Shown here in pieces: positions 21,101 through 52,865 of a stretch of 64,000 nucleotides of DNA. Source of the DNA: Takakia lepidozioides (Eukaryota; Plantae; Bryophyta); contig CM060731.1 in the NCBI GenBank assembly GCA_030704615.1, positions 19,468,001-19,532,000 on the forward strand, read 5' to 3'. How positions within the stretch are numbered: the first letter of the stretch is position 1; every line of letters starts with the position of its first letter. The notes beneath the pieces were generated by a model, which worked only from the letters and a program-made list of their open reading frames with translations, was not told where the DNA came from and did not search any database. The position numbers were made by a program, and so were the translations under genes.

Positions 21101-21830
21101 TGTAATCCTTAGCTGACAGATCTCTGCCACCTTCAATCTGATCTGAATTAGTGTCAATGGGTGCCCCACATCCCGCATTCTCTCAATGTATGCTACCAAC
21201 AATCGTTCTTCTTCATCAGTCATAACTCTGTGTTTGCCATGACGTCTGCTACGAATGGTTCCATACATGTGGACCCGTAGAGTAGCTGCAGGTATGGTGA
21301 ATTGCCTTGCAGCACCCCAGATTGACGACCCAGCCTTGATTGCTGCCAAGGCGCTAGCAAGAGCTTGGTCGAGCTCCTGATCTGGTACGTGAGTTGATCC
21401 CTTCCCCGCTGCATATCTGGTACGTGAGTTGATCCCTTCCCGGGCTGCATATAATTGGGGCCCTCCATAATTCCTTGCAGGTGTTTGCTGGGATGCTTGT
21501 CCCGAGACTGGAGTTACGTCGATTGGTGGTGGGGACTCCTTAGCAGGTGCCTGATCTGGAACTATAGCCGGTCCTTCGACTCTAGCTGCATAAATGCACT
21601 TCCGTCCACTCCTCGGCCAGGTCTTGTGCCCATGCAAAATTCTCATATTCATCGTCCTCAGACCCCTCGCCTCTTTGCCCTGGCTGCTATGTAGTACCTC
21701 TAGATTCCTCACTCTCACAATCACTACTATCATTATCGTGTTCTTGGGTAGCATTGTGTTCCTCCTCTGTGTCTGGTAGTAATCTGAATGCCTGGCTAGG
21801 ACGGAAATCCATGTCCATCGCTCCACGAAT
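18200..21830 (-). mobile_element. pogo/Tigger-type (Tc1-mariner superfamily) transposase remnant, interrupted by a CACTA element
   Basis: psq-type HTH (AIKAGSSIWGAARQFTIPAATLR), CENP-B HTH (EEERLLVAYI) and DDD triad IWNCDESG / LLILD-GHNSH / LQLLDVSAFKPFK. Frameshifted; termini not located, so ends are approximate. Confidence 0.85.
19307..20566. mobile_element. Non-autonomous CACTA (En/Spm) element, 1260 bp
   Basis: Termini CACTACAGCAAATGGGGGG ... CCCCCCATTTTCCTGTAGTG, 3-bp TSD CGT (19304-19306, 20567-20569) and many subterminal GCGACGCC/GGCGTCGC repeats. Confidence 0.95.
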
Positions 21831-22689
21831 TGCTATTGTAGTAAACTGAAGCGTGTTAAAATGTATGCACTGTAGCAGTATATAAAGTGAACCATGCATC
21901 CTATTTGCATTCATGCCTGACTGCTGTATTAACTGGCCGTTGTCCCAAAACACCCGCCTCCACTTTAAAAAACAAATGAGGAATTTGAAATGAAAATCAT
22001 TAGTCGGTTGTTTAATTAGCTTCACTAATCCAACATTAATTAAGCCCCTTGTACTCCAAAAACACCCCATACTGTACCTAATCCAAAGTAATAATTAACC
22101 TTGAACTACCTCCATTGCAAAAGTGCACAGTTCTAGGATGAAAAGGGTGACTTCATTCATAAAAAATAGGAGACAAAAAAAGGCAACACACACTTTTAGA
22201 TGCCATTACCTTAGGGTAATAGGGATTCACTTCTCAGCTCGTTTTTGGTTCCGCAGAACTTCACGGGATCTTGTGGATTATTGTACACAAAATATTGTTG
22301 GAAAACAATAGGAATAATGTAAGAACTTAATGCTCCGACAGTAGTTTCGTTGGATTTAAGTACCGTAGTGGGATAGCCGGTTAGGCAGAAATTAATTCGA
22401 AAAAAAAGTGCCTAATCAGAATAAATTGACAAGAGTGCCTAATTTTCAAAAATTTCTCTAAAAGTGCCTATGGTATAAAAACTTGAATTTAAATTAGAAA
22501 AACGAATATAAAATTTAAAAAAAATCTAAAGTGATATTCATTTAAAACGTCATCCATGGACTCAATTTTCAATTTTCATCCATGGCAGCGGCTGTATTTA
22601 TATTTTTTTTGTGTTTATTTTGTGGTCATTATTTTTAGTTGCTTAATTTGGAAAAATCCAACCTCTTCTTCCTTCCATAATTAGGGCTG

Positions 22690-27480: not shown

Positions 27481-27754
<274 letters not shown>

Positions 27755-28295
27755 TGAGACAGCCGCCATAGCCCCTAAAGCCCATCCTTCAGCTCTGTAC
27801 GCCCGCAATCAGTACGTCCGCTCTTGCCGCCCTCTCCAACGCTGATAAGCATATGCAAATTCCACCCCCTGCAGGGAGAAAGCATGACCCAGGTGGAAAA
27901 GCATGTAAGGATAGGGGAAGTTTCCAAAGAGCTTCTCACCTTCCTTTGAATTTTTAAATTTGAAAAGAAAAAGTAAAAGAAAAAAGCCCTTTTGATCTAA
28001 GTTAAAGGATTTAGAGCCTAATTGGTCATATCTTTGGCAAATGAACTCCGTTTGACACAGTTTTTGAGGGGATAGCTGCAGAAAGGGGAAATCTACCTAT
28101 CTAGACCTGGTTTTTGTTTTTGGGACTCTGCTAAAAATCTATGGAATTTTTAGAGTGTGAGTGTGCCATGAAAGATCCACATCCTGTTTCTAGAACCTGT
28201 TCTGGTCTATATGAGAGACAAAATCTGGGGATGTACTCCTTGTATGGCTGGGGGAAATGAGGACGTAATTGAAGGGCAGGTCTCTTCTTTAGCCT

Positions 28296-28990
28296 GTGCA
28301 CACAAGGGGACAGATTTATGTTTCCCAAGGAACTCAGACTGATTTGAGTGGAGAACAGTTGGACGAGTTGATTGCATACTGGGAGTCAGGCATTAGCAGT
28401 AGACAACAGACTGCTGTAGTTGGCGTTGAGGGCCTCAATATCGCCTTGGACAGTCAGAACTCTGTTGGAGCCAGCAGTTCTGCAGCTGTAGGTGAAATAC
28501 CAAAGTGGGTGAAAGCTAGGCTTGGAACACAGCCAAAGACAGCCCCGGGGACCAAGGTGTTCAGCCACAAGGCCGTGGTGTACTGGAGCAGAGGAGCAGG
28601 AGCTACACAAGTTTGTGCAATCAGACATGGTTGCAGCCGGATACGCTCTGCACAGGCAACCACGAGCGGGGGTTCATTAGCAATGACATGTTTGTTGTGC
28701 GTGAAGGAGATGCAGTCATTCGCAATGAGGACACCCGCAACCGTCTCAAAGCTTTCGAGTTGAGAGACTATCAGACCCTACCTTTGTTTTCTTTAGTGTT
28801 CAGTGAGCGGGAGATAGGGGAGTATTGCTTTGTCTCTACCTGGCAGAAAGAGGAGGAGGGTTGGTTAGAGCGAGCTACTGTAGCTTGGGACAAGGTTAGT
28901 GGCAGGTTTCTGGACATAGATATACCTCCTACACCTTACCATCATGCAGAGCGAGGCACTTTGAGAGAAGTCTGGCAGTTGATAGCATAG
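28296..28990 (+). CDS. Extra ORF (~230 aa, one frameshift near 28600) upstream of gag, function unknown
   Basis: Overlapping ORFs 28296-28763 and 28613-28990 join into one protein-like sequence on the same strand as gag-pol. Confidence 0.45.
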
Positions 28991-31900
28991 ATCAGGATTA
29001 GATCTTGCTTGGTCGGGCTTCTATTCTTCCCCTCCATCTCTGTACTATTTTCATTACCTTGTACTTGTAGTTGCCAAAGCCTCTCTTGGTGGAGGCCAGT
29101 CAGTCCGGGGTTTTGGGCTGGGATATTCTGCAGGATCAGCATTGCAGCTGGATTTTGGTGTGGGGGTGTTGATGTTTTGATTTCTTGTGTTTGGATCCCC
29201 CCAACACCTGCATGCTTGACTGTGCGCCATGTTGGTTTTGTGTGGGCGCTTGCTTTCATAGGGATTAGGCCGGATTTGATCACCGGTCAATCCTAGAGTA
29301 TGCTGTCGGTGGTGAGGCTGGAGTGATGACCAGCAAGACCACCAGTGTTTCTTCTATGGTGAGGCTGGGTTGATGACCAGCCAACCATAGGAGTTCTTGC
29401 GGTGGATGCAGGTGCAGGTGCCCTGAGCCATTGGGATATGACCCTTAAACTGCAACAGGTGCCCACCCGTGTCACTATTAGATTAGTACTAGAGCCTTAT
29501 AGTGTCACGTGGAGGAGGTGCACATTGTGAGTGTCATTACGGAGTTACCCAAGGGTTTTGAGGGGAGTACGGCTACAGGCAGTAACAGTGAGAGTGGGTT
29601 CACAAGACGAGGTATTCGGTTCAGACCACCTTCACCGCCACCCTCAATTACTGTAGAGTCAGACACAGACTCGGAGGCTTCATCAACAGGTGTGCACTTT
29701 CATTCGCCATTGTTGTGGGACGACATGGAGGAGATGTATGGAGCTACCAAGGGGCCTCGTAGGTACTCTGGAGCTGTGGGCACAATCGAGTTGGATGACT
29801 TTATCCAGGAGTTCGACAGCTGGTGTGATTTGCAGCAGATGCGCAATCCACAGCTATTCACCCCATTCATGGCGTGGAAGGGACTGTTCCAGCATTTGGA
29901 AGGCCCGCTATGGACGATTACCACGAGTTCAGGCGAGGACATGAAGCAGAGATTGAGGAGTGGAGGATGTATTGGTCACCTGACTACGTCTCCATTACTC
30001 GAGGCACGACGCGACCAGTAGCTGCATCAGTACCAATAGCTCCCACTGCCAGCACTAGTAGTGGAGCAAGTAGTGCTGGTACTTCTGCAGGTGGTACCAG
30101 TTCAAAAGGTGCTACTACTCCTCCTGCCACGACTACAACACATGTGCCTAGATTCAACCCGGTGGTGGAGTTCTTCCAGGAGTTGCGGAGGAACTACCAA
30201 GGTGTACGTGCGAAGTTTGCAAGACTTCCAGCGCAAACCCAGTGAGAGCCTGCGAGAGGCGTACACTCGTATGAGGCGCTTGATAAGTGTGACCCAAGGG
30301 GTTACTGAAGCTCAGGCAATCCAGTTTTGGTATGGAATTCTGGACAAGGAGCTCAAGAGAAGGGTGCGAGATGCAACCCTGTTACAAGCAGCCCAACCCA
30401 CATTAGCAGATGTGTTTCTGCTGGCTGAGCGGATTGAGCTCAACATGGTGGAGGAGCGAGTTGTTACAATTGGATTTGGCAAGGACATGCCTGCACGGGG
30501 CACAGCTGTCAGCCCACAGGCACAAGGGACTGCCCAACAGCGTGGTCAGGGGGGCAAGGTTTCCCAACCCAAGTTCCATGGAGCTTACAGGGGACCTCAG
30601 GTGCAGAGGCCCGTGGCATCTTTTGCAGGCCAACAGCAACCAGGGGTGATATGTTGGACATGTGGAGGACCCCATGTCAAGAGAGATTGCCCAGAGAGTG
30701 GCAAAAGGCCGGCACAAGCACAGCCTGCACAGTTGCAGTGTGGGCATTGTGGCAAGTATGGGCATGGAGATGCCCAGTGTTATGACTTGCATCCTGAGTT
30801 GCGCCCAGGCCAGTTCCAAGGGAACAATGGTGGCCGGGGGCGAGGTGGACCAGCCCAGAGAGGACGAGGTGGTCGGGCACGAGGTGCAGGCCAAGGGCAA
30901 GCTCAACATGGCCAAGGACGCGGAGGTCAGGGTGTTGACCAAGGCATGGCCAACCGGCTTCAGCAGCTAGAGCAGAGGCTCGCTGCCATGGCTATAGCTC
31001 AGGCGGTACCGGCTCCCAGGCGGGATGGTCCACCTCCTGCTCCTGAGGGAGGAGATATGGGAGGCATGGGATTCATGTGCGGAGCAGCACTACCACTAGA
31101 GCAGGTGGAGTCTGCTGCAGCCGTGACTCGAGGAGCAGCACGAGTTCCTGAGCCACGAGGTGCAGAGGTGGAGTTGGATCCACAACGTGGGGAGGCAAGC
31201 CGTCAGGCGAGGCTTCCTCAGTCATTCACATTGGCGGAGACAGTGTCAACGCCATCCATGGCACCTAGTTCTCGCCCGACTGTTACCGAGGCGGAGGTTA
31301 CTATGCCATTGGGAGAGCTACACGTGCAGCACTGACACCTGCTACCAAGGCTAGTGCAGCCGGTGTGTTATTGGGGGCAGCCACCTCTGTGTGTCAAGCC
31401 CCACTGTTCTCGGCAACCATGATTGCGACGCCGGGGTAGACCAGCTGCAGTGTTCAGACTAGCAGCAACACTCTGTGAGAGTGGGGAGGTCACTTCATCT
31501 TCTGCGGAGTTAGTGGAAGGTGTAGTGGCAGAGGGATCCTCGATTTGAGGGTCAAGACTGCCACGGCTGCGCCATGGCAAGCTGCAGCTGCCAGGTTGAC
31601 GGAGCTGCCAGCTAGGCCAGCCTTTGAGCGCGCCATGGTGACACCTGGAGTTGTCTTGTTAGACAACCAGGGAGGCATTTTCACTTTGAGTGGACCGGCA
31701 GGCAAGAAGTACCGGCCACTGCGGGTCTTGTTGGACTCGGAGCTCAGCCACTGATGTTGGGCAGAGCTGCTATTGCAGGTTTGGGCCTCATGGAGGCGGA
31801 TATGGAGCCTTGTCCTTTCCAGATACAGACATCTCTGGGAGGATCAGAGCAGGCTCGGGCATGACACGGCATCAGTTGGCCATTAGACTGCAGCCGGATC

Positions 31901-32439
31901 ATCCTAAGATGGCTCAGTGATGCGAGCCAAGGCCATTGTGACAGACGCGGTCTCTTACGATGTCCTCGTTGGTGGGGCAGTGTTATACCCATGGGCTTCA
32001 CCCTGGACTTTTGGGAGGAGTCAGCATCCTACAGGCCTGGATGGCAGTCAGGGGATGGTCGCCGTGCACAGCTCCCTGTGACATTCATTGGGGGTATTGC
32101 GGCTGCCCAGCGGGGCAAGATGCCAACACTAGCCGCCTTTACAGCTGCAGTTAGTTGGCCTGGAGAGTTGCTGGAAGGCAATGCCCATGCAGAGGATGTG
32201 CCACCTCCAGCAGAGCAGGATGACATGCATGGTATGGCGGAGTTGCCTGCCATGGTTGCTCACACTCCATTGTGGGGTACAGCAAGGATTTGCAGCAGGT
32301 TGCTGATCGACGGGTGCAACAAGCCTGGGTAGAGGCTTTTGTACCGTCAGGAGAGGAGGAGAGTGCGGGTATTGCACCAGGACCACCTCAGTTGTCACCA
32401 TTGGATACCACACCTATTGTGTGGCAGTATCCGGATGAA

Positions 32440-33375
32440 GGCATTTGCCTTCTGGACTTGTTTGGCGGGATCAGCACCGGATTGGCTGCTGTGCTACAGG
32501 CAGGTGTGCGGTAAGGCGTTACCTGTATGTGGAGAGGGATGAGACTGCACGACGCGTCTCACTGCGCCATGTGGCTCAGTTGGTACAGCAGTACCCTGAC
32601 TTGTTGCCAGTGTCTGCAGTTCGTGGATACCAACAAGCCTTGCCAGCAGACATTTCTTGTTGGGGGCGCAGATTTGGAGCAGGTTGGCTCCATTGATCTG
32701 GTAGTGGCAGGTTGGCCCTGCCAAGGGCATTCATCAGCGGGCATGGCAATGGATTGCGAGACTCGAGGACGGGTCTGTTTTGGGAGATGGTGCGGGTTTT
32801 GCGCCACTTGCAGCTTCATCAAGCTGTATCTCCAGCATACATCTTGGAGAATGTGCCACTGATGGGTGATTCTCGGGCCAGGGTGATGGCCAGTGTGCAT
32901 CAAGTCCGGTCGTGGCTTGGGTCAGCAGTGTGCTGGATGCAGCTGCAGTGGGGTCACGGGCTCATCGTCCACGGCTTTGGTGGACTAACTTGATGCCACC
33001 CGCACTGCTCAAGCGTGCATTTGATGGGGTGCAGCGGCCAGCACACCTCACCGTGGATGGCATTTTGGACACAGGGAGGCAGTCTCAACGTGTGAGACAC
33101 GATGACCGTTCGCCTTTGGCAGTGGTCAACAGGGTGGGTCAACCACGAGCAGCATTACCTACACTGCTCAGCTTCCCAGGATCCCATGCTTTTCGGGATG
33201 GTGGACCTGGGCCTCTTGTGGGATGCTCAGTTGCAACAGTTAGTGGAGCCTAATGCCGACGAGCGAGCGGGCTATGGGTTTTCCACTGGGACCACGGCGG
33301 TGCCTTCTCTTTCTGAGGCATCACGTCGTCAGGTGTTGGGGCAAGCAATGGATCTCAATTGCTTGACCTGGATTA
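32440..33375 (+). CDS. C5 cytosine DNA methyltransferase domain embedded in the retrotransposon pol
   Basis: Motifs in order across small frameshifts: I LLDLFGGISTG, II YVERD, III ADI, IV DLVVAGWPCQGHS (catalytic PC 32716-32721), V LRDSRTGLF, VI YILENV, VIII AHRPRLWWTN, IX-like EPNADER and X-like RQVLGQAM. Confidence 0.92.
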
Positions 33376-36300
33376 TCAGCTTGGCTATGGCTGAGCAACG
33401 TAGAGTGCGGAGTGCACTTCCCTTGATGGTCTCTCTGCCTACCGAGACGGTACAGGCAGCGAGTGGGGGCGAGCCGGTGAGGACCACGGGGTGTAGACAT
33501 CCATGGCACACGTGGGAGGTGCTCGAGGTTCAGAGGGAGTTGGCAGCCAAGGCAGCTGTGATGGATGAGGTTGGGGATTCTTCTCGGATGAGGAGGTTCT
33601 CAATGATGAGATGATGGGCAGGATGAGGCCTTGTCATTGACTGAGCAGGAGGGAGTACTGCTCAAGAGGTTTAGCATAGCAACCACGGGACGCGTCCTCT
33701 ACCTCTAAGCCCACTGGACTTAAGGTTGCAGTTACGGAGGACAATTGGGAGCCTGACATTGGACCCATTGTCACCGGAGGAGAGAGACGACGTATACGGC
33801 GGTTCCTGAGGGCTTACAGGAATTGCTTTGCCTTCAGTTTGAAGGACTTGGGAGCACTGATAAGGGTCAAGAGATCCGTATTGAGTTGGCCACTGACACG
33901 CCAATTTCGGAGACCCTATAGATACAGTGACATGGAGAGGTCTTTGATTCAGATGAGGACTCAAGATCTCTGGGAGGCAGGTTTGGTGGAGCTCTCTGGT
34001 GGAGAGTATGCTTCAGCCACAGTGATGCCAGCCAAGAAGGATGTCTATGGCAATTGGACGGAGAGACGTATGTGCGGTGATTACCGGCCTGTAAATCGTC
34101 AGACCAAGTCCGATAGGTATGCCATGCCGACACCAGAGGAGATCTTTGATGCCATTGGGCATTCCAAGGTCTTTAGCACGTTGGATTTACGATCGGATAT
34201 CACCAGTTGCCGATCAAGGAGGCGGATAAGCAAAAAGACGGCATTCTGGGGGATCAATGAGCACGGGAAGGATTGCCTATACCAGTGGCGGTTCTTACCA
34301 TTTGGGCTTAAAAACGCTCCCGCTGAGTTTCAAAGAGTCATGGACAGGATTCTAGCAGGGGTGGAGTTTGCTGGTGCTACATAGATGACATCATCATCTT
34401 TAGTGCTACGGTGGAGGAGCATGAGAGACACCTTCAGGGGGTTTGAGCGCTTGAGGGGCGCACGGATTGAAGTTACATCCGGGAAAGTGCAAGTTTTTCC
34501 ACAACCAGATTGAGTATCTGGGTCACATGATATATCCTGGAGGATGGGGGTACAGCAGACTAAGGTAGAGTCCATTGCACAGGTTCCACGCCCCACGGAT
34601 GTGAGCCGAGTTCGAGCTTTCATGGGGTTAGCAAACTATTACAGACGGTTTGTTAAGGGATTTAGTGCCATTGCAAAGGCTCTAACCAAGCTGACCAAGG
34701 TGGACCAGGAGTGGCAGTGGGAAGATGAGCAAGAACAAGCTTTTCAAGAGCTCAAGGCGAGGTTGACCTCGGCGCCCATCTTGAGACGACCTATCAGGGG
34801 GCGTCCTTTTCAGCTGCATACAGATTGGAGCATGCTGGGGCTTGGAGCGGTGCTCACACAGGTGGATGATTCGTAGTGGCTTATGCTAGCCGCTCGAACA
34901 ACATGCAGAGTCTAAGTATAGCTCATATGAGGGAGAATGCTTAGCTGCAGTGTGGGCCGTGGCACACTTCAGGTGCTATCTATACGGCAATCTCTTCACC
35001 CTTGTCACGGATCACCAACCACTCAAGTGGTTGATGGAGTCAGACAAGCTTACGGGGAAGCTTGCACGGTGGGCACTCATCCTTCAAGAGTATGACTTTC
35101 AGGTGGTGCATCGACCGGGTTTGGTCAATCGCAATGCAGATGGGTTGAGTCGCAATCCATGCACGAGCCAACAGGATGACACTGGAGCTCGGTGGCATGG
35201 TGAGACGGACGAGGAGATGGTGCCGGATGGCATGCATCTGCATTTCTGTGTATCTTGGCAAGGGAAGCCAGGTTGGACCTGCAACAGGGATGACTGTAGA
35301 TCAAGTGTCTGAGGACCCTGAGCCAGCAATGAGCAAGGTGGCGCCAAAGATATACATGAGGATTCAGTTGTGTTGGACTACCTCCGCACTGGAGACATGG
35401 CAGCCTGTGACTGCCAAGGAGAGGGATCGGATCCTACAACGAGCCAAGAGGTTCAAGTGGGAGGGGACACACCTGCTCCGAGTGGGAGGATGTCGAGTGA
35501 GGATTGTGCCTCACCCAACACAGCGGGCACGGTTAGTGCGGCATGCCCATGAGGAGTTGGGGCATTTTGGGGTGCGACGCACTCATAGTCTACTGCAGGG
35601 GCAGTATTGGTGGCGTGGTATGCACACAGAGGTGCAACAATTTGTGGCTAGGTGCATGGTGTGTGACAGGGTGCGTGCTTCATTCAACGCCCCTACTCCA
35701 CAATTGCACCCTCTTCCGATCATGGGATTGGGCTACAGGTGGAGTCTTGACTTCGCAGGGCCGTTGCCACTGACCATGCGCCACAACAAGTACGTGTTGG
35801 TGATGGTGGAGCACTTCTCCAAGTGGATTGAATTGGTTCCATTGCCTGATAAGGCTAGTGAGGGAGCTGCGTATGCATTCCTGGATTGTGTGCTTAGCCG
35901 ATTCGGTGCTCCAGCTGAGGGTACTCACGGACCAAGGGAGAGAGAGTTCTTGGGGAAGTTTCAGGCTTTGTGTGACAAGGCCTTGATAGACCACCGCACC
36001 ACTTCTCGGGATCATCTGAGGCCGATGGCTTGGCAGAGAGAGTTGTTCAGACAGTAAAGAGGGGTTTGCCAAGTATGGCTTGCAGAAGGGACACCTAGGA
36101 GATTGGGACCTTCAGTTACCCTGGTTAGCCATGGCTACAGGTTCAGCAAGCAAGCATCACTTGCCTCCTTCTCACCATACTTTCTTCTCTTTGGCCGAGA
36201 GCCGGATTTGCCTACATCCATTCGCAGAGAAGCTGCTACAGTTCTTAACCTTGACGATCCGGACGTGTGGGCACGTGCATGTGAGCAGCGTGCAGAGTTG

Positions 36301-36643
36301 TTCAAGAGAGTCATGCCCATGGCTTTCGAGAACCTTGCCATTGCACAACACCGTGATACGTTGAGGTATGCTACCATACGTGGTGGGGGCTATCGTCCTG
36401 GGGTTCGGGAGATTCAACCCTGGTGACTATGTCTATCTGCAGCAGACTGCTCCTACGACCCTGGATGTGACTGCAGAACGTGTTATTTGAGGGTTCGAGA
36501 GTCTTGCCCTCAGGCGTCTTGGTCTTGGAGGGTCGGGATGGCATAACTTGGAAGGACCATGTGCGTAATTGTGTACCATGTCACCTTCCGAATGTCGATG
36601 GCAGGATTGACCCAAACCTGGCAGTGGTATCTGCAGTTTGAGG

Positions 36644-36787
36644 TGCATGTTGTGTGGGTCTGTTAAAGGGGCAGCCACCATGCTGGTGTGCGATCGATGC
36701 TCTAGAGGTTGGCATATGGGATGCTTGACTCCACCTCTTGAGATGGTTCCAGATGGGGATTGGTTATGTCCACATTGCATTGGATAG
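36644..36787 (+). CDS. PHD finger at the integrase C-terminus
   Basis: CMLCGSVKGAATMLVCDRCSRGWHMGCLTPPLEMVPDGDWLCPHC is an intact C4HC3 PHD, followed by IG and TAG. Confidence 0.92.
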   Translation, partial: CMLCGSVKGAATMLVCDRCSRGWHMGCLTPPLEMVPDGDWLCPHCIG

Positions 36788-37032
36788 TGGGAGTGGATAC
36801 AACCATGGAAGGCTAAAAACGCAAGGCCCAGCTACTAGGAGACCTTGAACACACGAGATCCTGGCTCAAGTTCACAGATTGCAAGACGGCGACTAACGAT
36901 GGGGCTACTCTTGTACCCGGCCCCTTGGTCTATAGAGTTTGAGTACAATAGGGACAGTGATAGAGGACTTAGTACGGCTGTGGATATTACATCTTGTAGC
37001 TATCTGGAGGTAGAGGGACCTATCCACCAGCT

Positions 37033-37100
37033 AGGGGGGCGATTGTGGACTACTTTATTGTGCATATATGTGTGGTGTGGTTTGGACAGCGATGTAGTTG
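37033..37100 (+). other. Polypurine tract and start of the 3' LTR of the DNMT-Gypsy element (interrupted at ~37101)
   Basis: AGGGGGGCGA followed by t-TGTGGAC at 37044; an unrelated TGTAGCG-starting LTR-like sequence begins at 37101. Confidence 0.6.
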
Positions 37101-39268
37101 TGTAGCGATATGTATGCGCACGACAAGCTAAAGGTAAGAATACCCCCCTTTAAGGGAATTTGCAGACGCGTTGCCCGTTGGGTAAAACGCCCCGCCCGCG
37201 TGGCAGGGCGCAGATCTGCGCGTAGCGGTCCAAGTCGTGGACCGCTGCGGTTAACGCCAGCGTCCGCCGGTCCGTCTCAACTTTTGGTTATCCAGCGGGT
37301 AAAGATCCGCACCCTGCTCGCATGCTTCAGGGCCATACGCCTGAGCCACACGGCTGACGTACTTGATCTCAGTACGACTGAAGGTCAGCGCTGGAGCCCC
37401 GCTCCCGTATGTCGTGGCTGGGCCACGGCTGCCTCCACGCTTTTAGTAATCGAGTCCCTACTCTCTAGGCGTAGCACCCGGGCTCCTCCCGGGCTGCTCG
37501 CGACTTTGGGGCAGCTGTTGTCTAGCGAAATTAGCCCGCCCAAATCCCAAGACAAAAAAAATACAACCCACCCTCCCCTAGGCCTCCATGGCTTGCTAGG
37601 GGGGGGGGGGGGGGGGGGGAAATTAGCACATAGTGGCCTTATAGTGGCCTTATATCATAGATCCAGCCTACTGGCCTGCCTCTGCCAGAGCTGGCTATAT
37701 TTCAAATTAGTAATCAAACACAAAGATTCTTTCTTCCAACAATGCAAATACAAACCTCTATTGGTGCCCTTCCCAATAGACTATGGGGTTCTTCCCCTTG
37801 TCACTTCTAGACATGAAAATAGTGGGATTCCACAATGCACTCTCATCTTTTGAAGAGCCTAAATCAGATTTTCAACTTCAAGCTTTGCTTGGAAAATAAA
37901 TGAATCACATACACAAATGGTGAAATGGTAAGATAGGACCAACCTTTCTATGCGAGAGTGCTTGGGATGCTCTATCGACTCAAGTAATGGTACTCTATGC
38001 GGCCTCCACTTGGGCTCTCATCCATAAGTCCATACTAGCCCCTCCTACTCGTCCTCAAGTCACTTTCCTCCACATGAAATTGCCCTCTTCCTTCACAAAT
38101 GAAATGGCTCGAAGGCCCACAAGCTAGGCCACTTGCCTCAGCTTACAAGAATCCTACCTAACTAGGGAGCTTTAAGCTCCACTCCCTAGGATCTAGCCCC
38201 TCCTTAAGCCAAAAAACTATCAAGCACTACAACAACAAGCAAGAGGAAACTAAACAAATGAGCTAGATGAAGAATAAGAGACGCCTTGCCCCTCTTTTAT
38301 ACTGTTGTTGGGCCTAATAGACTAATGGAAAATATTCATTAAACTATTGTTTCCTTGGAGGATCTATAATATAATATTCAACATGGATGAAAAATCGTAG
38401 AGGCAAATGAAAGCTGGCTTTTCATCCATCCAATTGGATGATCAGTTGGCGTGAGTTGTCATTTCATCCATCCAGCTCCTCAAGGCGAATTCCAGGATTA
38501 TCCAAGAAGTAGAAATGCAAATAATAGGCCTTGTGAGTGCCGTTGACTCAATAATTCGGCCCCGCTGCTAATCAGCTCCATAAATCACCAAACTTGGTGA
38601 CAAACTATAATTATATATCCCGTATCAGCCTGTAAATTCTCAGCTCCATCGGTGGTAAAAAATTGCACTTCTCGCCATTCGTCGTATTTTCGCTACAGAC
38701 ATATTTGTGGGTTTTTTGGAAATCAAATCCGTGGTGATGGCTCCGGGGTCTTTGACCCTGCCGCTGAGTCATAGGTTGTCCGGAGTCCCATCCAGTTGTC
38801 CCGCACCGCTAACAAATCCACGCTTAGCCGTTTGAAGTCGTCCTGACCTTTTGTCATTTCGATGCGGCCAATTGCTTTGTTGCGATATTTCATCGCTATA
38901 CATGTCGCTTCCACCAAGTGCCAAGCTCCTAGCTGTGTGTTCCTACTGGACTTGAAAAGCGGGAGAAAAGAGAGATCTCAATCTGGGACTGGAACAGTCG
39001 ACCTGTATTGTTTGGACAGGATTAAACTTGTCGTTTCTGGTACCGAATTGGCAGCCTAATCTGCTGTCGATGCAGCTTCCTACGGTCATCTTGACGCCAA
39101 AGTTCCACCCCATGGTCGTCGCAGACACTGTCTAATTTCCTACGTGCTTTACCAACAATTTCCAGACAACTAACAAACTAACCTGTTTTGGAAGTACAAT
39201 GCCAAAACCGCTTGTCTTATGATCAAAAATGATATGAAAAGAAAAGTGTACCAATATATGCATCTACA

Positions 39269-39820: not shown

Positions 39821-41960
39821 GTGCCGAAAAAACATTTGGCATGAATCCACTTTGGATAATGTGAGTGTGCACCTGATTCCAGCTTCCGGACCTTTCATCT
39901 TGATGCACTTAAGCAAAAGACAGACATACGTATCTGAATCTGCTGAAATGCCTCCTTGGGTTAAAGTCTGTAGAGCCTTTGTCAGTCTGCCTGCCTCACA
40001 AAACATCTTCACATGCCTATAAGTGCCAGAAAAGACATTGTGGACTCCCTCTCTTGATCCTCTTCCAGAAGCTGTGGTCATGGTTGAGGTGCCTGATTTT
40101 ATCAACTGTGCCGTTGCAGCTGCTGCCTTTGGCGATGCAACCATGCACCTCTTTGCATCTGGTAATCTGACAGACATCACCTTTTTGCCTCGGTTATCCC
40201 ACCATTGACTGGGGTCAGGAAAGTATTCAGCTAACTATCCAGCTAACTTGCAGAATTCAACTTGGAAATTTAGGGCCAATTCTGATAAGAGGGCAAAACA
40301 GGGTGAAATGTGTTGAAGAAGGTGCTTTCATTAGCAGCGCCTGTCCATTGTGCCGCTGCTGCTGCGGGGCCCCAGTACATTTGGTACAATTCCAGCTCTG
40401 AAGATGTCGCCATGGACCTCTTTCCCCTTTTCCAAAGCTGCCAGGGCAGTGTTCGGATTGACATTTGGTACAATTCCAGCTTTGATGATATCCCCATGCA
40501 CCTCTTTGCCCTTCTCCAGGGCTGCCAGGTTTGCACAAGCATTGCAAATGCACACAAACATGATGTGCTTCCCTCATCATTTGCTCAGAGGTCTCCAAAG
40601 CCTCCATCCCACATCCCTGATGTGCATACCCTGCAAGCATCACACTCCACGACACCACATCTCGTTCAGCTGTAGTGTCGAACACTCCCTTCACATCCTA
40701 GATGCACCCACATTTTGCAAACATGTCCACCAGGGTATTGTTCAGAATGAAATCTGGTACAATTCCAGCTCTAAAGATGTCGCCATGGACCTCTTTCCCC
40801 TTTTCCAGAGCTGCCAGGGCAGTGTTTAGAATGACATTTGTTAAAATTCCAGCTTTGACAATATCCCCATGCACCTGTTTGCCCTTCTCTAGGGCTGTCA
40901 GGCTTGCACGACGCCACATCTTGTTCAGCCATAGTATAGAACACTCCCTTTGCATCCTAGATGCACCCACATTTTGCAAACATGTCCACCAGGGTATTGT
41001 TTCTGGTCCGCCATAGTGGCTCAAATGGGGACGAGAGATTACCGGTATGATATACAGAGACTTTAGTCTATGAGTTTGCGTGTTTTATACTGCTTTTGTG
41101 CAATGCTCGACCTTGTGTATTGTTAGTTAATGCTTGACAGTTCATATGTATAGTCTCAATCCCTGCTCCTTCATGGATGTTTTGCTGCATTCTTGTGATT
41201 CACTTACAAAGCAGCCAAAATGATCAATGCCCACTCAGTGATGGCTCCTTCAAGGATGTTTGGCTGCATTCTTCACAAGGACACGAACTTACAATGGTCA
41301 AAGAGGTAGAAGTCTGCCGAGAGATCCAGCGCCCAACAACTTCCTTACTGTAATGCAGACGCAACTGATCTTGAGTCCTTATAAGCGACTGGGACTTGCA
41401 ACAAACGCCCTCAACGCATTAGAGCTCGAGGCAACACATGTGAAAGCCCACATTTGCGGGATGGACAAACTTCTTCACCATGTACATTACGAAAACGCCA
41501 CACCTTTGCGATTGCGGTTGTCCCACCATCGTGAAGGATCTGTAAAAAACTCATACCAGAGCTCCGTGCTGCAAATTCAGGGCCGAGGATGAACCCTAAA
41601 GCAAAACAGGCTGAAATAGGTCGAAGAAGAAGGTGCCCTCACCACATTGTCCATGGAGGATTAGACTGACCATGAACCCAAGAAGACCTCTTGTGTGTGC
41701 TGCTTGTGTATGTAGTCAGGTAATCTCGGATTGGTCTGTGAGAATGACCACGGTGCAGCTAAGCGAGCAGAGATTGAAACACGGCCCGTAAGACCAAGCC
41801 GACTCTCCCAAGAACCTTGTAATCATCACGAAGAATACCAAATCATGGTACTAAGCGGAGCCAAGAGCCCACATTTGCACATAATGCGCCCCTGACGCCA
41901 TAAATGCTTGCAGCAATAGGACATGGGCCTCAATTTGGTCTTCGTCCTTCCCACATCACT
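39820..41960 (-). pseudogene. Scrambled PPR paralog fragments, including a PDF half-exon at ~41505-41570
   Basis: HVKMFCEAGRLTKAL, LEKGKEVHGDI and VDMFAKCGCI repeats with stops; ELWYEFFTDPSRWWDNRNRK near 41505-41570. Confidence 0.85.
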
Positions 41961-43569: not shown

Positions 43570-46195
43570 AAGGTGTCGTTTTTGAGGATGACTGGGAGGA
43601 AGCAATCAACTCAGAATTGAATTCGTTGATGCAAAATAAGACATGGACATTGACTAAGTTGCCAGCTGCAGGGTGTCGAGCCATTGGTTGCAAATGGATA
43701 TTCAAATTGAACTGCAAAGCTGATGGTTCCATTGACAGGTAGAAAACTCGTCTTGTAGCTAGAGGCTATTCACAAGTTCATGGAGTGGACTATAGTGAAA
43801 CATTCTCACCTGTCGTGAAGATTTCGTCTATCAGAGTGTTATTGGTTCTTTCAGCTCAATATAATTATGAAGTTCATCAAATGGATGTGAAGACAATATT
43901 TTTGAATGGTGAGCTCAAAGAAGAGATTTAAATGAGATACCCTAAAGGATATACTCAAAGAAGAAATCTCGTGTGCAAACTGCACAAGAGCTATATGGGC
44001 TCAAACAAAGTTCACGAGCTTGGTATGCCAAGATCGATGCTTATCTTGAAAGTAAAGTTCAAAAGGAGTGTGCATGCAGACTCAAATGTTTATGTGATGA
44101 GGACGAGAGATTCATTTGTGGTCATAGCAATATACGTGGATGACACCATTATTGTTACCAATGATAGTCAAGGCTTACTACCACAAGCCAAAGTTCTACT
44201 AAGTTCAAAGTTTATTATGACTTATATGGGTGAGATTCAGTTCTGCCTTGGTATACAAATTCACAGAGATCGGGTAAATCATACAATTTATATCCATCAG
44301 CACTAGTACATTCAGACCATACTACAGAGATTTAAGTTGGAGTTGCGTAATGCGGTAGCTACTCCTCTTGATGTTGGTTTAAAACTCTCAAAGGACATGA
44401 CACCTATGATTAGGGAAGAAGATGAGGATATGAAGGTTATTTCCTATCAAAGTGCATTTGGGAGTTTAATGTACTGCATGATTTGTACTAGGCCAGACAC
44501 TGAATTTGCCTACTCAGTGGGAGTGATGTCACAATTTCTTTCAAACCCCGGACATACCCATTGGCTAGCGGTAAAATTTTTCGATATATCAGAGGAACGG
44601 ATATCGACATAGTTTATGGCCGAAAAGAGAATCCAAAGTTGGTTGGGTTTACAGATGCAGTTTGGGCAAGAGATATTGATAGTAGAAGATCTACTTCAGG
44701 CATTGCATCTAGCAGGTGGCGTGGTATCTTGGTCTAGCAAACGACAAAATTCAACAGCTCTTTCGTCAAGAGAAGCTAAGTACATGTTAGCTACACAAAC
44801 AAAAAAGGAAGCTGTTTGGTTACGGAAGCTGGAGATTTGGGGCATCTACAGCCACACCCAACAACTCTATATTGTAACCATCAAAGTGCGACTGCATTAA
44901 GTCAAAACCCAAAATAACATTCAAGGACTAAGCACATTGAGGTTCAACATCACTGTTCGGGAGGTTGTAGGCAAAGGAGAAATCAAAGTGATATATTGTT
45001 CTACAGAAGACATGGTTACAGATGTTTTGACAAAAAACCTACCAAAGCCAAAACACATCAAGTGTTCACTTGAACTTGGTGTAATGTCTCCAAAGACATT
45101 GGAAGGTGGGTGAAAGCAGGCTACGGTGGCTCAATTTTTGTGTCACAGCACGTGTTTTACAAGACATACTTTGATTCAATTGTACCTTAAAAACAAATTC
45201 TTATTACAATGATAAAATGATACTCACTCTTATGTTTCTAAGCTCTAATCTTTAAATTTTCACCAAGAAATGAAGTTGATTTGTCGAAGTAATGGACTTT
45301 AGAAAATTGCATACGACAGTGTCACAGTCCATAAAAAAATGTGTTGCACTATAAAAAACAAATATGATAAAAGGACTCATATTAGTATTGCTTTCCTCTT
45401 AAAGATACTAAAGTCATATTAGAAAACATCAAAAAAGTGAAATTTATTACTTCTATATATTATTGTGAGCCTCAAAAAACTAATTTTTGGCAAAGTACAT
45501 GAATCCATGGAAACAAAGTTAAAAAATGGACTTGCTTCACTAAAATGTACATTTAATGTAGATGAAGAGTAGCCTGAGTCCCACTATGCGATATAGTCAA
45601 AATATAAAAAATGTGAAATAAAATAAAATAATTAAAATAATGTCTGTTACTAGGAAAAATAATAATAATGCCATGGTGTCTGTTATTGTCAACTTTAGTC
45701 GGTTCATATCTTTCAACATTGATGAATCTATCGACTATAATTTTTCCATAATCATCAAATCAAAATTGTAAAAAAAACCTTGGGACTTCTTGTATAGGCC
45801 AACCGGTGGACTTTTCAGAGCCACCGTAGCTTGCTTTCCCCCAGGTTGAGATTACGTGATTATCTTTCTAAGAGGGGGTGTCGGAAAACAGCTCCATATT
45901 CAACGAATCTACAACTTGACTTGTAGATAAAATTAGGGACATTAAAAGTAATTCTTTATTGACATAGGCTTTTGTCTTAAAGTTAAAAGCTAGTCCATTA
46001 TGGAACTACTTAATATATATAGTAAAAGTATGTCTAAAAGGCAAGTCTTTAGTTATTGCTTTTAGCCTAGCTAAAACTATATAAGAAGCTCAGGGTGAAG
46101 CCACAAATGTATGGTTGTTCTTGTGGTGTGCTTCTAGGGTTGGGTGGAGAGCTTCTATACAATCCTCAATTATTGTTCTATCTACGTTTTCAACA
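43570..46195 (+). mobile_element. Ty1/Copia remnant: RT-RNase H, PPT and 3' LTR (45879-46195)
   Basis: AIGCKWIF, LVARGYSQ, HQMDVK, IYVDD, CTRPD, SWSSKRQ and RTKHIEV motifs; PPT AGAGGGGG 45871-45878; LTR TGTCGGAAAA...TTTTCAACA with TATATAA near 46078; a partial second LTR start at ~46301. Confidence 0.9.
45108..45842. mobile_element. AT-rich MITE, 735 bp, 25-bp TIR, 4-bp TSD AGGT
   Basis: GGGTGAAAGCAGGCTACGGTGGCTC ... GAGCCACCGTAGCTTGCTTTCCCCC (23/25 match); AGGT at 45104-45107 and 45843-45846. Confidence 0.88.
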
Positions 46196-49662: not shown

Positions 49663-52596
49663 TCACCAGTAATCCCCACAAGAACAAACCCCATCTTCAA
49701 AGTGGTGAAAGCGGTTAGCGTCCCGTACAACAATTGCCCGGCCAACAATCTTTGAGATAAATTTGGTGGAGGTGTGGCAGTCACCACACACCCGAAGATT
49801 CTTGATGAGACGGAGAGGCGTCCTCGGGGCCGTGCTGATCAGCCCAAAACCAATGGCCAGCTTCTCACTGTGGTGGCAAAGAGAAAATTCCTTTTGCTCC
49901 TCCCCCACGTCATGCAATACAAAGCGCGTGTCAGGCACATACCCTGCCTCCTTCATCTGCCCAGACAATCTTCTAAGCTCAGCATGGACTTCCTTAATCT
50001 TGGGATGCAATTTGTCATCTACAACAAAGGTGTGCACCCTGTTGCCAACCTCTATGCAGCAGCAACCTGGCTCCTTCCTAACCCCTCTGACCTTCATCAT
50101 TTTTCTCACCTTTGCACTATCATCCCACCTGCCATCTGCGGCATAGATGTTTGATAGCAACACATAAGTCGCGGCATCCTGTTCATCCCACTTGAGAATA
50201 GATGTTGCTGCACGTTCAGCCATCTCCACATTGCCATGGATTCTGCAGGCACCAAGCAAGGCCTTCCACACCACAGCATCTGGTTTGATTGGCATTTTAT
50301 TAATGAGGTCCTCTGCCTCATCCAATTGCCCTGCACGTCCAAGAAGGTCCACCATGCAGCCAAAGTGCTTTACTGTGGGAGTGACACCATGATCTTCACT
50401 CAGGGAATCAAAGTAGCGTCTACCTTCATCCAGTAGGCCAGCATGGCTGCATGCAGAGAGAACACATATAAAGGCGATACTGTCCGGCTTCAAGCCTTCC
50501 TTTTGCATTCCCTCAAATAGTTGCAGGGCCTCCCTATGACAACCATGCTGGGCATATCCTGCGATCATCGCATTCCACGACACCACATCTCGTTCAGCCA
50601 TATTGTTGAACACTCCCTTTGCCTCCTGGATGCACCCACATCTGGCATACATGTCGACAAGGCTACTGTTCAGAATGACATCTGGTACAATTCCAGCTTT
50701 GACAATGTCACCATGGACCTCTTTGCCCTTTTCCAGGGCTGCCAGGCTCCCACACGCATTGCAAATGCAGACAAAAGTGATCCGGTCGGGCTTTACCCCT
50801 TCCCGCATCATTTGCTCGTAGGTCTCCAAAGCCTCCATTCCACACCCCTGCTGTGCATATCCTGCGATCATTGCGCTCCAAGACACCACATTTCGTTCAG
50901 CCATTTTGTCGAACACTCCCTTTGCATCCTCAATGCTCCCACATTTGGCATACATGTCCACGAGGGTACTGTTCAGAATGACATCTGGTACAATTCCAGC
51001 TTTGACGATGTCACCATGGACCTCTTTGCCCTTTTCCAGGGCTGCCAGGCTCGCACACGCATTGCAGACGCAAACAAACGTGATCCTGTCGGGCTTCACC
51101 CCTTCCCTCATCATTTGGTCATAGGTCTCCAAAGCCTCCATCCCGCACTCCTGCTGTCCATATCCTGTGATCATCGCATTCCACGACACTACATTTCGCT
51201 CAGCCATATTGTCGAAGACTCCCTTTGCATCCTTGATGCTCCCACATTTGGCATACATGTCCACGAGGCTATTGTTCAGAATCACATCTAGTATAATACC
51301 AGCTTTGACAATGTCACCATGGACCTCTATGCCCTTTTCCAGGGCTGCCAGGCTCGCACATGCATTGCAAACGCAAACAAACGTGATGAGGTCAGGCTTC
51401 ACCCCTTCCCGCATCATTTGCTCATACGTCTCCAAAGCCTCTGTCCCTCGCCCCTGCAGTGCATATCCTGCCATCATCACGCTCCACGACACCACATTTC
51501 GTTCAGCCATATTGTCGAACACTCCCTTTGCATCCTCGATGCTCCGACATTTGGCATACATGTTCATAAGAGCAGTGTTCAGAACAACATCTGGTACAAT
51601 TCCAGCTTTGATGATGTCGCCATGGACCTCTTTGCCCTTTTCCAGGGCTGCCAGACTTGCACACGCATTGCAAACGCAAACAAATGTGATGTGGTTGGGC
51701 TTCACCCCTTCTCGCATCATTTGCTCATAGGTCTCCAAAGCCTCCATTCCTCGCCCCTGCTTTGCATATCCTGCCATCATGGCGCTCCATGACACCACAT
51801 TCCGTTCAGCCATCTTGTCAAACACTCCCTTTGCATCCTCGATGCACCCACATTTGGCATACATGTCCACAAGGGTACTGTTCAGAATGACATCTGGTAC
51901 AATTCCAGCTTTGATGATGTCATCATGGACCTCTTTGCCCTTTTCCAGGTCTGCCAGGTTAGCACACGCATTGCAGACACAAACAAACGTGATGTGGTTG
52001 GGTTTCACCCCTTCCCGCATCATTTGCTCATATGTCTCCAAAGCATTCCTACCATACCCATGCTTGGTAAATCCTGCCATCATTATATTCCATGTGATCA
52101 AACATCGTCGAGGCATTCTGTTGAACACTTGATGCGCATCCACAATGCTCCCGCACTTAACATACATGTCGACAAGGGTGTTGTGCAGAAAAACGTTTGG
52201 CTGGAATCCACTTTGGATAATGTGAGCATGCACCTGCTTTCCAGCTTCCAGGCCTTTCATCTTGATGCACTTACGCAAGAGACAGACATAAGTCTCCGAA
52301 TCTGCTGAAATGCCTCCTTGGTTTAGAGTCTGTAGAGCCTCTTTCAGACGCCCTGCCTCACAGAGCATCCTCACATGCCTAGAAGTGCCAGAAGATGCAT
52401 TGTAGACTCGCTCTCTTGGTCCTCTTTCGGAAGCTGAGTTCACAGTCAAGGTGCCTGATCTTATCAATTGTGCCACTGCTGCTGCTGGTTCCGCTTCCAC
52501 TTGACCAACTACCCATGCAGGTATTTTGTAGCTATGGATCCTCCACAGGGAATCATAGGTAATCTTGTGCTTGAAATCGGGCCCTCTTGGATGAAT
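49663..52596 (-). CDS. PLS-class PPR protein with E1/E2 and DYW deaminase (organellar C-to-U editing factor), main exon
   Basis: Intact ORF with 20 L/S/P motifs, E1/E2, PG box, HSEKLA, CGDC and terminal DYW. The exon starts at acceptor ccag|ATT CAT CCA (52596). Confidence 0.97.
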   Translation of the reverse strand: MHPRGPDFKHKITYDSLWRIHSYKIPAWVVGQVEAEPAAAVAQLIRSGTLTVNSASERGPRERVYNASSGTSRHVRMLCEAGRLKEALQTLNQGGISADSETYVCLLRKCIKMKGLEAGKQVHAHIIQSGFQPNVFLHNTLVDMYVKCGSIVDAHQVFNRMPRRCLITWNIMMAGFTKHGYGRNALETYEQMMREGVKPNHITFVCVCNACANLADLEKGKEVHDDIIKAGIVPDVILNSTLVDMYAKCGCIEDAKGVFDKMAERNVVSWSAMMAGYAKQGRGMEALETYEQMMREGVKPNHITFVCVCNACASLAALEKGKEVHGDIIKAGIVPDVVLNTALMNMYAKCRSIEDAKGVFDNMAERNVVSWSVMMAGYALQGRGTEALETYEQMMREGVKPDLITFVCVCNACASLAALEKGIEVHGDIVKAGIILDVILNNSLVDMYAKCGSIKDAKGVFDNMAERNVVSWNAMITGYGQQECGMEALETYDQMMREGVKPDRITFVCVCNACASLAALEKGKEVHGDIVKAGIVPDVILNSTLVDMYAKCGSIEDAKGVFDKMAERNVVSWSAMIAGYAQQGCGMEALETYEQMMREGVKPDRITFVCICNACGSLAALEKGKEVHGDIVKAGIVPDVILNSSLVDMYARCGCIQEAKGVFNNMAERDVVSWNAMIAGYAQHGCHREALQLFEGMQKEGLKPDSIAFICVLSACSHAGLLDEGRRYFDSLSEDHGVTPTVKHFGCMVDLLGRAGQLDEAEDLINKMPIKPDAVVWKALLGACRIHGNVEMAERAATSILKWDEQDAATYVLLSNIYAADGRWDDSAKVRKMMKVRGVRKEPGCCCIEVGNRVHTFVVDDKLHPKIKEVHAELRRLSGQMKEAGYVPDTRFVLHDVGEEQKEFSLCHHSEKLAIGFGLISTAPRTPLRLIKNLRVCGDCHTSTKFISKIVGRAIVVRDANRFHHFEDGVCSCGDYW

Positions 52597-52865
52597 CTGG
52601 ACCCACACTCTATCCCTGCTCCTTCAGCTATCCCTGCCACTGCACCAGTCACCTACAGATCCTTGACTTGCTGCTAGCAGCTGACGATGACAGCCTAGAA
52701 TTCTTCTAGAAAACACCCCAACGCTACTCATCACACACTAGTTCCTATGCTAAATAGCTTCCAAGACTTTAAAAATGTGCTGGGGAGAGAGAGGATGACA
52801 ATTCCAGCAAAGATTTCCATTGTATGTTGTTGTCTTCTTCTCTCTGTAACCTAACAGGCATTCAC

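Follow-up and report, generated by a model that had tools for sequence, protein, structure and literature searches.

A PHD finger at the integrase end of a retrotransposon of the Gypsy-DNMT3 kind in Takakia lepidozioides

Results

Features of the retrotransposon copy

The stretch of DNA analyzed here, referred to as the window, comprises 64,000 nucleotides (nt) of Takakia lepidozioides (Bryophyta; GenBank assembly GCA_030704615.1, contig CM060731.1, positions 19,468,001 to 19,532,000 of the forward strand). It carries a retrotransposon copy in which gag, protease, a Dnmt3-like DNA methyltransferase (DNMT), a TAG stop codon, reverse transcriptase (RT), RNase H, integrase and a PHD finger follow one another in that order. 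Comparison with relatives indicated that the presence of a PHD finger and a Dnmt3-like DNMT in one element is real and is the rule in this clade, and its sequence places the element, here in a land-plant host, among the Ty3/gypsy retrotransposons of the Gypsy-DNMT3 kind already published. The window element itself is a dead copy, with every part interrupted. Its features are given below; proteins and DNA loci of relatives are referred to by P and L numbers, respectively.

28268..37125 (+): repeated unit, one decayed retrotransposon copy, both ends approximate (contig depth of other copies)
29503..31332 (+): gag region spread over three frames, two CCHC zinc knuckles (open frames with CWTCGGPHVKRDC and CGHCGKYGHGDAQC)
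31479..32329 (+): aspartic protease region, broken (tblastn, P0178 residues 949-1125 to 31551-32086)
32224..33611 (+): Dnmt3-like C5 cytosine methyltransferase in at least four frame pieces (motifs, PF00145, tblastn)
33677..33685 (+): in-frame TAG followed by CAA CCA between DNMT and RT, predicted leaky stop (match to a read-through motif)
33680..34873 (+): RT with internal stops (PF00078, E 6.8e-9; tblastn with P0122, 64% identity over 33713-34870)
34514..35309 (+): RNase H with a frame change near 34880 (PF17919, 1.5e-15; PF17917, 3.9e-22)
35149..36054 (+): integrase H2C2 zinc finger and DDE core (PF17921, 1.7e-16; PF00665, 6e-8)
36058..36638 (+): integrase C-terminal module in frames 1, 2 and 0 (ends in NCVPCHLPNVDG and a linker of about 12 codons)
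36644..36778 (+): complete C4HC3 PHD finger, none of its eight zinc ligands lost (ligand pattern and Pfam PF00628)
36788..37125 (+): 3' non-coding part of the repeated unit (high multi-copy depth to about 37100)

The order protease, RT, RNase H and integrase (H2C2 and DDE) over 31.5-36.1 kb is that of Ty3/gypsy elements. A Pfam scan of the gag region (29503-31332) gave no match, and the protease-matching part of the first open reading frame (ORF1) of an intact relative, L031, scored below threshold with Asp_protease_2 (22.4 bits, cut-off 24.3, E 2e-4). Within 32224-32990 the window DNMT has motif I as LLDLFGGISTG, motif IV as GWPCQG and motif VI as ILENVP. Two of its pieces scored 18 and 19 bits against PF00145, under the 22-bit cut-off, because the domain is split; the intact DNMT in L031 ORF1 scored 51.1 bits. 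By tblastn the window DNMT was 47-58% identical to that of Klebsormidium nitens (P0028) and 52-54% identical to those of P0026 and P0178, and it is termed Dnmt3-like for its similarity to the K. nitens element already published.

No fewer than five frame changes interrupt the copy between RT and PHD finger, and so do three or more in-frame stops, of which at least two lie in the RT frame between 34381 and 34514 and one is at 36055-36057. No terminal direct or inverted repeats were detected in the window copy with a repeat finder, self-BLAST or a short-word comparison of 27.5-29.6 with 36.8-38.2 kb. The relatives L075, L058, L009 and L022 carry a direct repeat of about 340 nt, its copies 8.7 kb apart (4623-4959 and 13257-13826 in L075; 4741-5068 and 13138-13706 in L058), and in L075 and L058 a 115-nt repeat also flanks the 3' copy on both sides (B ... 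A-B-A). This layout fits the "DIRS-like repeat structure" of KnitGypsy-Dnmt3, the published K. nitens element.

The integrase end and the PHD finger

Positions 36644-36778 (+) translate to CMLCGSVKGAATMLVCDRCSRGWHMGCLTPPLEMVPDGDWLCPHC, followed by I-G and then by TAG at 36785-36787. The ligand spacing, C-x2-C-x11-C-x2-C-x4-H-x2-C-x14-C-x2-C, is the canonical C4HC3, and Pfam PF00628 matched with 46.3 bits (gathering cut-off 24) and an E of 4.4e-12, so that the finger is not a product of chance. A preliminary description of this DNA, made from the letters of the sequence, had claimed an intact C4HC3 finger here, and the eight ligands together with the Pfam match bear this out. Upstream of the finger, NCVPCHLPNVDG at 36567-36602 is the window version of the conserved NCAPCHLP motif, which closes the integrase C-terminal domain in relatives; the module as a whole aligns with their GDYVYLQ...ILRV...GVL.LEG.DG...NCAPCHLP. 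No chromodomain was detected in any of the 20 translated pieces scanned with Pfam, including pieces of 36058-37102. The finger, standing after integrase core and C-terminal module, occupies the position at which chromoviruses carry a chromodomain, as had also been proposed.

Two further statements of that description held in part. It had the NCAPCHLP-type motif preceding the finger; the motif is present, but in the window copy the two lie in different frames, with a TGA at 36639-36641 closing the NCVPCH frame. It also had the finger ending the polyprotein, which is the case at family level, where other copies have both in one frame, and is not the case in the window copy. When compared with intact relatives, the last 130 codons of the window pol run successively through frames 1, 2, 0 and 2, and the open frame of the PHD finger, 58 codons long, lacks an ATG upstream.

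Other copies in the host

Copies were followed through contigs of four public runs aligned to window positions 27500-39000. The segment from about 28.3 to 37.1 kb is a highly repeated unit, with a summed depth of about 0.7-1.2 million in run X3 against thousands in the flanks, and 89,057 X3 contig pieces lie on 27500-39000. Summed depth climbs about 100-fold between 27884 and 28651 and drops after about 37100; loose contig ends and joints lie at 28221, 37048, 37081 and 37125. Other copies showed single-base length differences within each interval where the window switches frame. Two contigs, X7 record 17 and X9 record 19 (the latter under a second organism label), cover 36380-36800 whole with four gaps each, and the four gaps summed put integrase end and PHD finger in one frame. 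At positions 36574-36575 nearly all other copies differ from the window, in agreement with the NCAPCH of the relatives. A finger out of frame or absent from the family, named in the preliminary description as an outcome that would speak against it, was therefore not what we observed: the PHD finger is present and in frame across the family.

Among the 3288 X3 pieces on 36380-36800, likeness was at least 99% in 770, 95-99% in 1173, 90-95% in 1012 and below 90% in 333. The spread from above 99% to below 90% over tens of thousands of pieces (X3, X5) suggests a long-lasting and possibly recent activity.

Relatives and their architectures

A 302-residue piece of the window integrase, searched against longer proteins, gave 145 matches at E<=1e-10 among 1117 candidates, and the integrase-seeded counts cover the 120 listed of these 145 matches. 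Named relatives came from the liverworts Calypogeia fissa (77% identity) and Riccia sorocarpa, from K. nitens, and from Volvox, Pleodorina, Tetrabaena and Chlamydomonas eustigma. The C4HC3 pattern followed the integrase in 96 of the 120; most of the other 24 are gene models breaking off within the integrase. In the closest relatives the finger lies 0-14 residues from the protein end with NCAPCHLP before it, and algal-type proteins carry a tail of 79-430 residues after it. The core L-x-C-D-x-C...G-W-H...C-L-x-P-P...P-x-G-x-W-x-C-P-x-C is conserved across the fingers of the clade. The second open reading frames (ORF2) of L031 and L035, 1047 residues each, are intact from RT to PHD finger, and P0178 (2811 residues) has DNMT and PHD finger within a single ORF.

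A FastTree phylogeny of 110 integrases (10 of the 120 omitted for short matches, and the window omitted; midpoint root, local supports) contained two large branches. The first, streptophyte-type, of 38 rows (support 97), has a terminal PHD finger and, where it is visible, the DNMT before the RT; it includes K. nitens P0028 and the closest relatives of the window. The second, chlorophyte-type, of 71 rows, has the PHD finger with a tail and the DNMT before the integrase. This arrangement, seen mostly in proteins of the algal type, has the order RT, RNase H, DNMT, integrase, PHD finger, tail (P0040, P0053, P0083, P0102 and about 40 more).

One protein of the P0010 cluster, P0166, is a 1043-residue RT-integrase-PHD protein with the NCBI label of an uncultured Synechococcales cyanobacterium; its most likely origin is eukaryotic DNA that was sorted into a bacterial genome during metagenome binning.

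Association of PHD finger and DNMT

With the DNMT regions of P0178 and P0040 as BLASTP queries, 51 of the 120 integrase relatives proved to contain a homologous stretch: before the RT in 4, in the gap between RNase H and integrase in 24, and in N-truncated DNMT-integrase fragments in 23. When the RNase H-integrase gap was at least 365 residues, it held a DNMT in 24 of 25 proteins, the exception being P0104. The long algal-type proteins have a constant gap of 570-720 residues between RNase H and integrase, with PF00145 below threshold on rescan. Short-gap proteins begin no more than 265 residues before the RT, and an upstream DNMT is not visible in them. P0081, nested in a DNMT-bearing branch, has the PHD finger without a DNMT. 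The view that the DNMT is sporadic, derived from precomputed PF00145 matches in 7 of the 120, was rejected, as Pfam misses or under-scores the domain in proteins where BLASTP finds it.

The DNA loci were metagenome stretches related to P0122 (171 matched, 149 confirmed, 80 kept). A DNMT lay directly upstream of the RT in 36 of the 39 loci having at least 1500 nt upstream of the RT, and a DNMT match was present in 40 of all 80. In the opposite direction, phmmer with window 32870-33250 as DNMT seed yielded 466 proteins at E<=0.001, of which the best 150 were examined. Among the 149 new proteins in this set, 49 also had an RT or integrase, and a PHD finger was present in 21 of the 22 that reached at least 260 residues past the integrase core. 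These counts answer in the affirmative the question, raised in the preliminary description, of whether PHD finger and DNMT co-occur.

Catalytic DNMT motifs are intact in L031, P0018 and P0040 (motifs IV and VI in P0040), and the elements encode a Dnmt3-like C5 methyltransferase with motifs I, IV (PCQ) and VI (ENV); the earlier proposal of PHD domain and DNA methyltransferase in one element stands. The DNMT types of both branches are alike (P0040 region versus P0018, E 4e-71), which is suggestive of one source for both. Judging from these sequences, the PHD-DNMT pair stays together in two deep branches, though the DNMT sits in two places.

A conserved stop codon between DNMT and RT

In L031 two ORFs in the same frame are separated by a single TAG, the first encoding gag-protease-DNMT (1369 residues) and the second RT-RNase H-integrase-PHD (1047 residues). 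The same single in-frame TAG is found at the junction in L035 and L043, L035 having another stop upstream in ORF1. All 16 loci with both sides in one frame have the junction stop, and when located by peptide anchor it was present in 30 loci and the window, as TAG in 26 and TAA in 5. Downstream of the stop these 31 sequences read CAACCA, CAACTA, CAGTTA or CAATCA (strict CARYYA) in 7, CAACCC in 23 and CAACCT in 1; the window has TAG CAA CCA at 33677-33685. UAG-CAR-YYA is described in passages of PMC3542737 as the tobamovirus-type read-through motif. P0178, P0018, P0026 and P0028 are continuous, without a junction stop. Because the in-frame stop between them is conserved, DNMT and PHD finger in the window clade would be joined in one polyprotein only after read-through. 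To our knowledge no read-through signal of this sort is on record for a long terminal repeat retrotransposon, no literature search having been made for it.

Selection on the finger

An intact 45-codon finger with GWH was found in 32 of the 80 loci, plus the window. Ratios of nonsynonymous to synonymous substitution (dN/dS) were calculated by the Nei-Gojobori method (NG86); the rows had been picked for the intact pattern and were recounted minus the ten pattern codons. Between lineages the ratios were 0.19 for the window versus group g1, 0.13 for the window versus g2 and 0.26 for g1 versus g2 (0.42, 0.23 and 0.41 on the recount), values which are rough given a saturated dS of 0.8 to >2. Within g2 (L031, L035, L036 and L043, with long open RT-to-PHD frames) the ratio was 0.09 (0.10 on the recount), and within g1, which consists of decayed copies of one subfamily, it was 0.92 (1.17). 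The contrast between active lineages and decayed copies is clear despite the saturation, and the substitution pattern indicates that the PHD finger is under purifying selection between lineages.

Resemblance to solved PHD fingers

A phmmer search of the finger against solved structures matched 93 sequences at E<=0.01, 60 of which were listed. The best matches were CHD4 PHD1/2, PHF12, KDM5B/KDM5A PHD1, ATXR5, PHF21A, DPF3, WSTF, KMT2D, BAZ2A/B, UHRF1, KAT6A and AIRE PHD1, with E 3e-16 to 1e-8 for those of KDM5A/B, CHD4, PHF21A, AIRE and ATXR5. Most of these fingers presumably read the unmodified H3 N-terminus or H3 unmethylated at K4 (K4me0), and none of the 60 listed is known to be a classical H3K4me3 cage reader. 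In place of the (S/A)-(Y/F)-H of the aligned readers the family has G-W-H, so that an aromatic residue stands directly before the ligand histidine in both. The position two before that histidine, which would hold the cage tryptophan in cage readers, is glycine in the family. A structure of the C-terminal 140 residues of L031 ORF2, predicted with AlphaFold2 from an 11-row alignment, was too poor to use (mean predicted local distance difference test score 48.7) and gave no confident interface.

Surroundings of the copy

The 64-kb window holds other transposon fragments, namely a Tc5/pogo-like DDE transposase at 20526-21832 (-), a Copia RT piece at 43932-44303 (+) and an RVT_1 piece at 57581-58489 (-). 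Host genes are nearby as well: a TFIIB-like gene at 11010-12740 (-), asparaginase exons at 14929-16670 (+), and at 49666-52623 (-) an open pentatricopeptide repeat (PPR) protein of 986 residues with E and DYW deaminase domains, of the RNA-editing factor type. Internal repeats of about 303 nt occur in the latter, and PPR-like fragments with shared repeats lie at 39821-41000 and 61378-64000. The "transposon nest" of the preliminary description is weak evidence for steered integration: host genes share the window with the other transposon fragments, and one dead copy is uninformative on targeting.

A fragment of the ribosomal protein uL2 at 27581-27754 (+) (PF03947, E 1e-9) adjoins the 5' border of the element. 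It has deep X7 contig cover running into sequence absent from the window, with loose ends at 27586, 27688 and 27693. As the next uL2 exon was not found anywhere in the 64-kb window, this stretch is probably a gene fragment or pseudogene.

Discussion

A putative role of the finger in integration

By analogy with the chromodomain of chromoviruses, we lean towards the reading that the PHD finger at the integrase end docks the integration complex on H3 tails, and hold it to be somewhat likelier than its negation. In an intact element most ribosomes would stop at the TAG and produce gag-protease-DNMT, and a minority would read through at UAG-CAA-CCA, adding RT-RNase H-integrase-PHD. After processing, the finger would remain on the integrase and bind the N-terminal tail of H3, most likely without K4 trimethylation, and this binding would make insertion at active promoters less frequent. 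The DNMT, for its part, would work independently as a de novo CG methylase, the activity put forward for the published Gypsy-DNMT3. The window copy, broken throughout, is itself capable of none of these steps.

Four points weigh against such a tether. A finger acting purely as an integration tether would not account for the DNMT being nearly always present as well. The window copy lies within 64 kb of the TFIIB-like, asparaginase and PPR-DYW genes, which is not obviously silent chromatin, although this is a single copy and provides no test. The saturation of dS makes the evidence for selection between lineages rough. Lastly, the loop that connects cysteines two and three of the finger is S-V-K-G-A-A-T in the window subclade and K-K-G-A-A-T in intact relatives, against G-N-D-E-D in KDM5B PHD1 and G-(E/D)-D in distant family members (P0012, P0014, P0016, P0017, P0024). 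The acidic residues of this loop presumably help to hold the H3 tail; because they have been lost, the ligand of the subclade may be a different one.

This loss also favours a reading in which the finger is no histone reader and acts as a zinc-stabilized protein-binding or structural module of the integrase, serving for example multimerization, nuclear import or the binding of a host factor. Some PHD fingers are known to have non-histone partners, and the model of the integrase tail showed no confident interface. The nearest solved relatives, however, are all chromatin proteins, the finger core is conserved across the clade, and the position is the same as that of the chromovirus chromodomain. 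We consider this reading rather unlikely.

The main rival to an integrase tether is a coupled reader and writer, in which the finger would mainly serve the element's own DNMT, reading for example H3K4me0 and directing or licensing methylation at or around new copies, as a split and transposon-carried equivalent of how ADD and catalytic domain are coupled in DNMT3. Unmethylated H3K4 is the state that licenses DNMT3, and the finger resembles readers of this state. Co-inheritance of the two domains is almost without exception in all three counts (36 of 39 loci, 24 of 25 long-gap and 21 of 22 DNMT-seeded proteins), L031, P0018 and P0040 retain intact catalytic motifs, and in the chlorophyte type, where the DNMT stands directly before the integrase, a DNMT-integrase-PHD fusion is conceivable. 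In the window branch, however, DNMT and finger lie more than 1000 residues apart on opposite sides of the conserved stop, with protease cleavage sites probably also between them. The finger is always found after the integrase and never after the DNMT, despite the two places of the latter, and P0081 has kept a finger without a DNMT inside a DNMT-bearing branch. Co-inheritance within a clade can moreover be plain common descent. With these points taken together we judge the coupled arrangement to be unlikely.

A broader proposal would see finger and Dnmt3-like methylase as one epigenetic toolkit co-travelling in a Gypsy lineage over green algae and land plants. The finger would pick nucleosomes without H3K4 methylation, and the methylase, made in excess because it is upstream of the leaky stop, would write CG methylation there, so that each copy would install its own chromatin state by a split version of the coupling between ADD and catalytic domain. 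We regard this as a doubtful proposition, quite unlikely as it stands. Finally, the idea that the finger does not belong to the retroelement and is a random open frame or an exon captured from the host, as its 58-codon stand-alone frame outside the integrase frame of the window might suggest, has been refuted with next to no probability left to it by the Pfam E value, by the finger lying in the integrase frame in other copies and in relatives, and by its presence after the integrase in 96 of 120 relatives.

Retrotransposons with their own chromatin tools show mobile DNA adapting to host silencing. Gypsy-DNMT3 was described from a single alga, and the available text of that account names no reader domain (PMC5890265). 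What is added here is a land-plant host with very high copy number, a PHD finger under selection throughout the integrases, a two-way association of finger and DNMT over two deep branches with two DNMT positions, and a conserved stop in a known read-through context between the DNMT and the RT-integrase-PHD half. Should the integrase tether be correct and the finger steer insertion, the clade would be to PHD fingers what chromoviruses are to chromodomains, and would offer a natural system in which to study integration guided by a reader in early land plants; the window copy itself is an ordinary dead insertion.

Comparison with known systems

The closest published system is KnitGypsy-Dnmt3 of K. 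nitens, a Gypsy-DNMT3 (de Mendoza et al. 2018, PMC5890265), later treated as a streptophyte family in passages of PMC12344493 and 10.64898/2026.05.21.726589. Like it, the window element has a Gypsy pol with an intron-less Dnmt3-like DNMT between protease and RT, and KFL_009030040 (P0028) matches the window with 47-58% identity in the DNMT and 48-54% in the integrase. The relatives of the window also share the odd repeat layout noted in the parts of PMC5890265 available. The window element differs in its land-plant host with DYW-type PPR genes, in having its closest named proteins in liverworts, and in being a dead copy without terminal repeats; P0028, the K. nitens gene model, breaks off immediately ahead of the place of the PHD finger. 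A PHD finger is unmentioned in the accessible text and three supplements of PMC5890265, whose figures may still draw one, and none is ascribed to Gypsy-DNMT3 in the passages available of PMC12344493, PMC6317226 and 10.64898/2026.05.21.726589. Our literature search, which covered text and neither figures nor bioRxiv supplements, found no statement that Gypsy-DNMT3 integrases end in a PHD finger.

Chromoviruses are Ty3/gypsy elements with a chromodomain at the integrase C-terminus, according to passages of PMC6317226, a survey whose accessible text mentions neither PHD finger nor methyltransferase. Available parts of de Mendoza 2019 (PMC6673714) cite chromodomains as directing chromovirus integration and note that many retrotransposons encode PHD fingers. 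In both groups a small domain of the histone-tail reader type follows the integrase C-terminal module, and by analogy it may tether integration here as it is thought to do there. Unlike chromoviruses, the present family has a zinc-bound PHD fold with no chromodomain found, and the mark read is probably different.

REM1 (Perez-Alegre 2005) is reportedly a PHD-bearing Gypsy element of Chlamydomonas. A PHD finger is also described in Chlamydomonas Gypsy-7a_cRei (in passages of PMC9940879) and in retrotransposons more generally (passages of PMC8557442 and PMC6673714). These are, like the window element, green-lineage Gypsy elements with a PHD finger, whereas the chlorophyte-type branch differs from the window in its tail of 79-430 residues after the finger and in having the DNMT between RNase H and integrase.

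EpiLTRs, as presented in accessible passages of a 2026 preprint (10.64898/2026.05.21.726589), combine an adenine methylase, a DNMT4-related cytosine methylase and a chromodomain. They resemble the present family in joining DNA methyltransferase and chromatin-reader domain in one retrotransposon; the latter has one Dnmt3-like DNMT and a PHD finger, a domain absent from the available text of the preprint. In our Pfam scans neither an adenine methylase nor a chromodomain was found, PF00145 and PF00628 being the only hits among the methylase and reader families.

The unmodified-H3-tail readers KDM5A/B PHD1, CHD4 PHD1/2, PHF21A/BHC80, AIRE PHD1 and ATXR5 have in common with the finger L-x-C-D-x-C, (Y/W)-H, C-L-x-P-P-L and P-x-G-x-W-x-C-P-x-C, and the window subclade differs from KDM5B PHD1 in lacking its acidic loop residues. 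The likeness to the ADD domain of DNMT3A/3L is one of logic only, a zinc finger reading H3K4me0 in the company of a Dnmt3 catalytic domain. The preliminary description had drawn this analogy; it is a loose one, with RT, RNase H, integrase and a stop codon in between. ADD, composed of a GATA and a PHD part, adjoins the catalytic domain in the same protein, whereas here a plain PHD finger stands at the far end of the integrase, and none of the ADD-specific families scored in the Pfam scan of the window pieces. The architectural part of the earlier interpretation is right, and the combination of PHD finger and DNMT is not new in kind, with Gypsy-DNMT3, green-lineage PHD-Gypsy elements and EpiLTRs all published.

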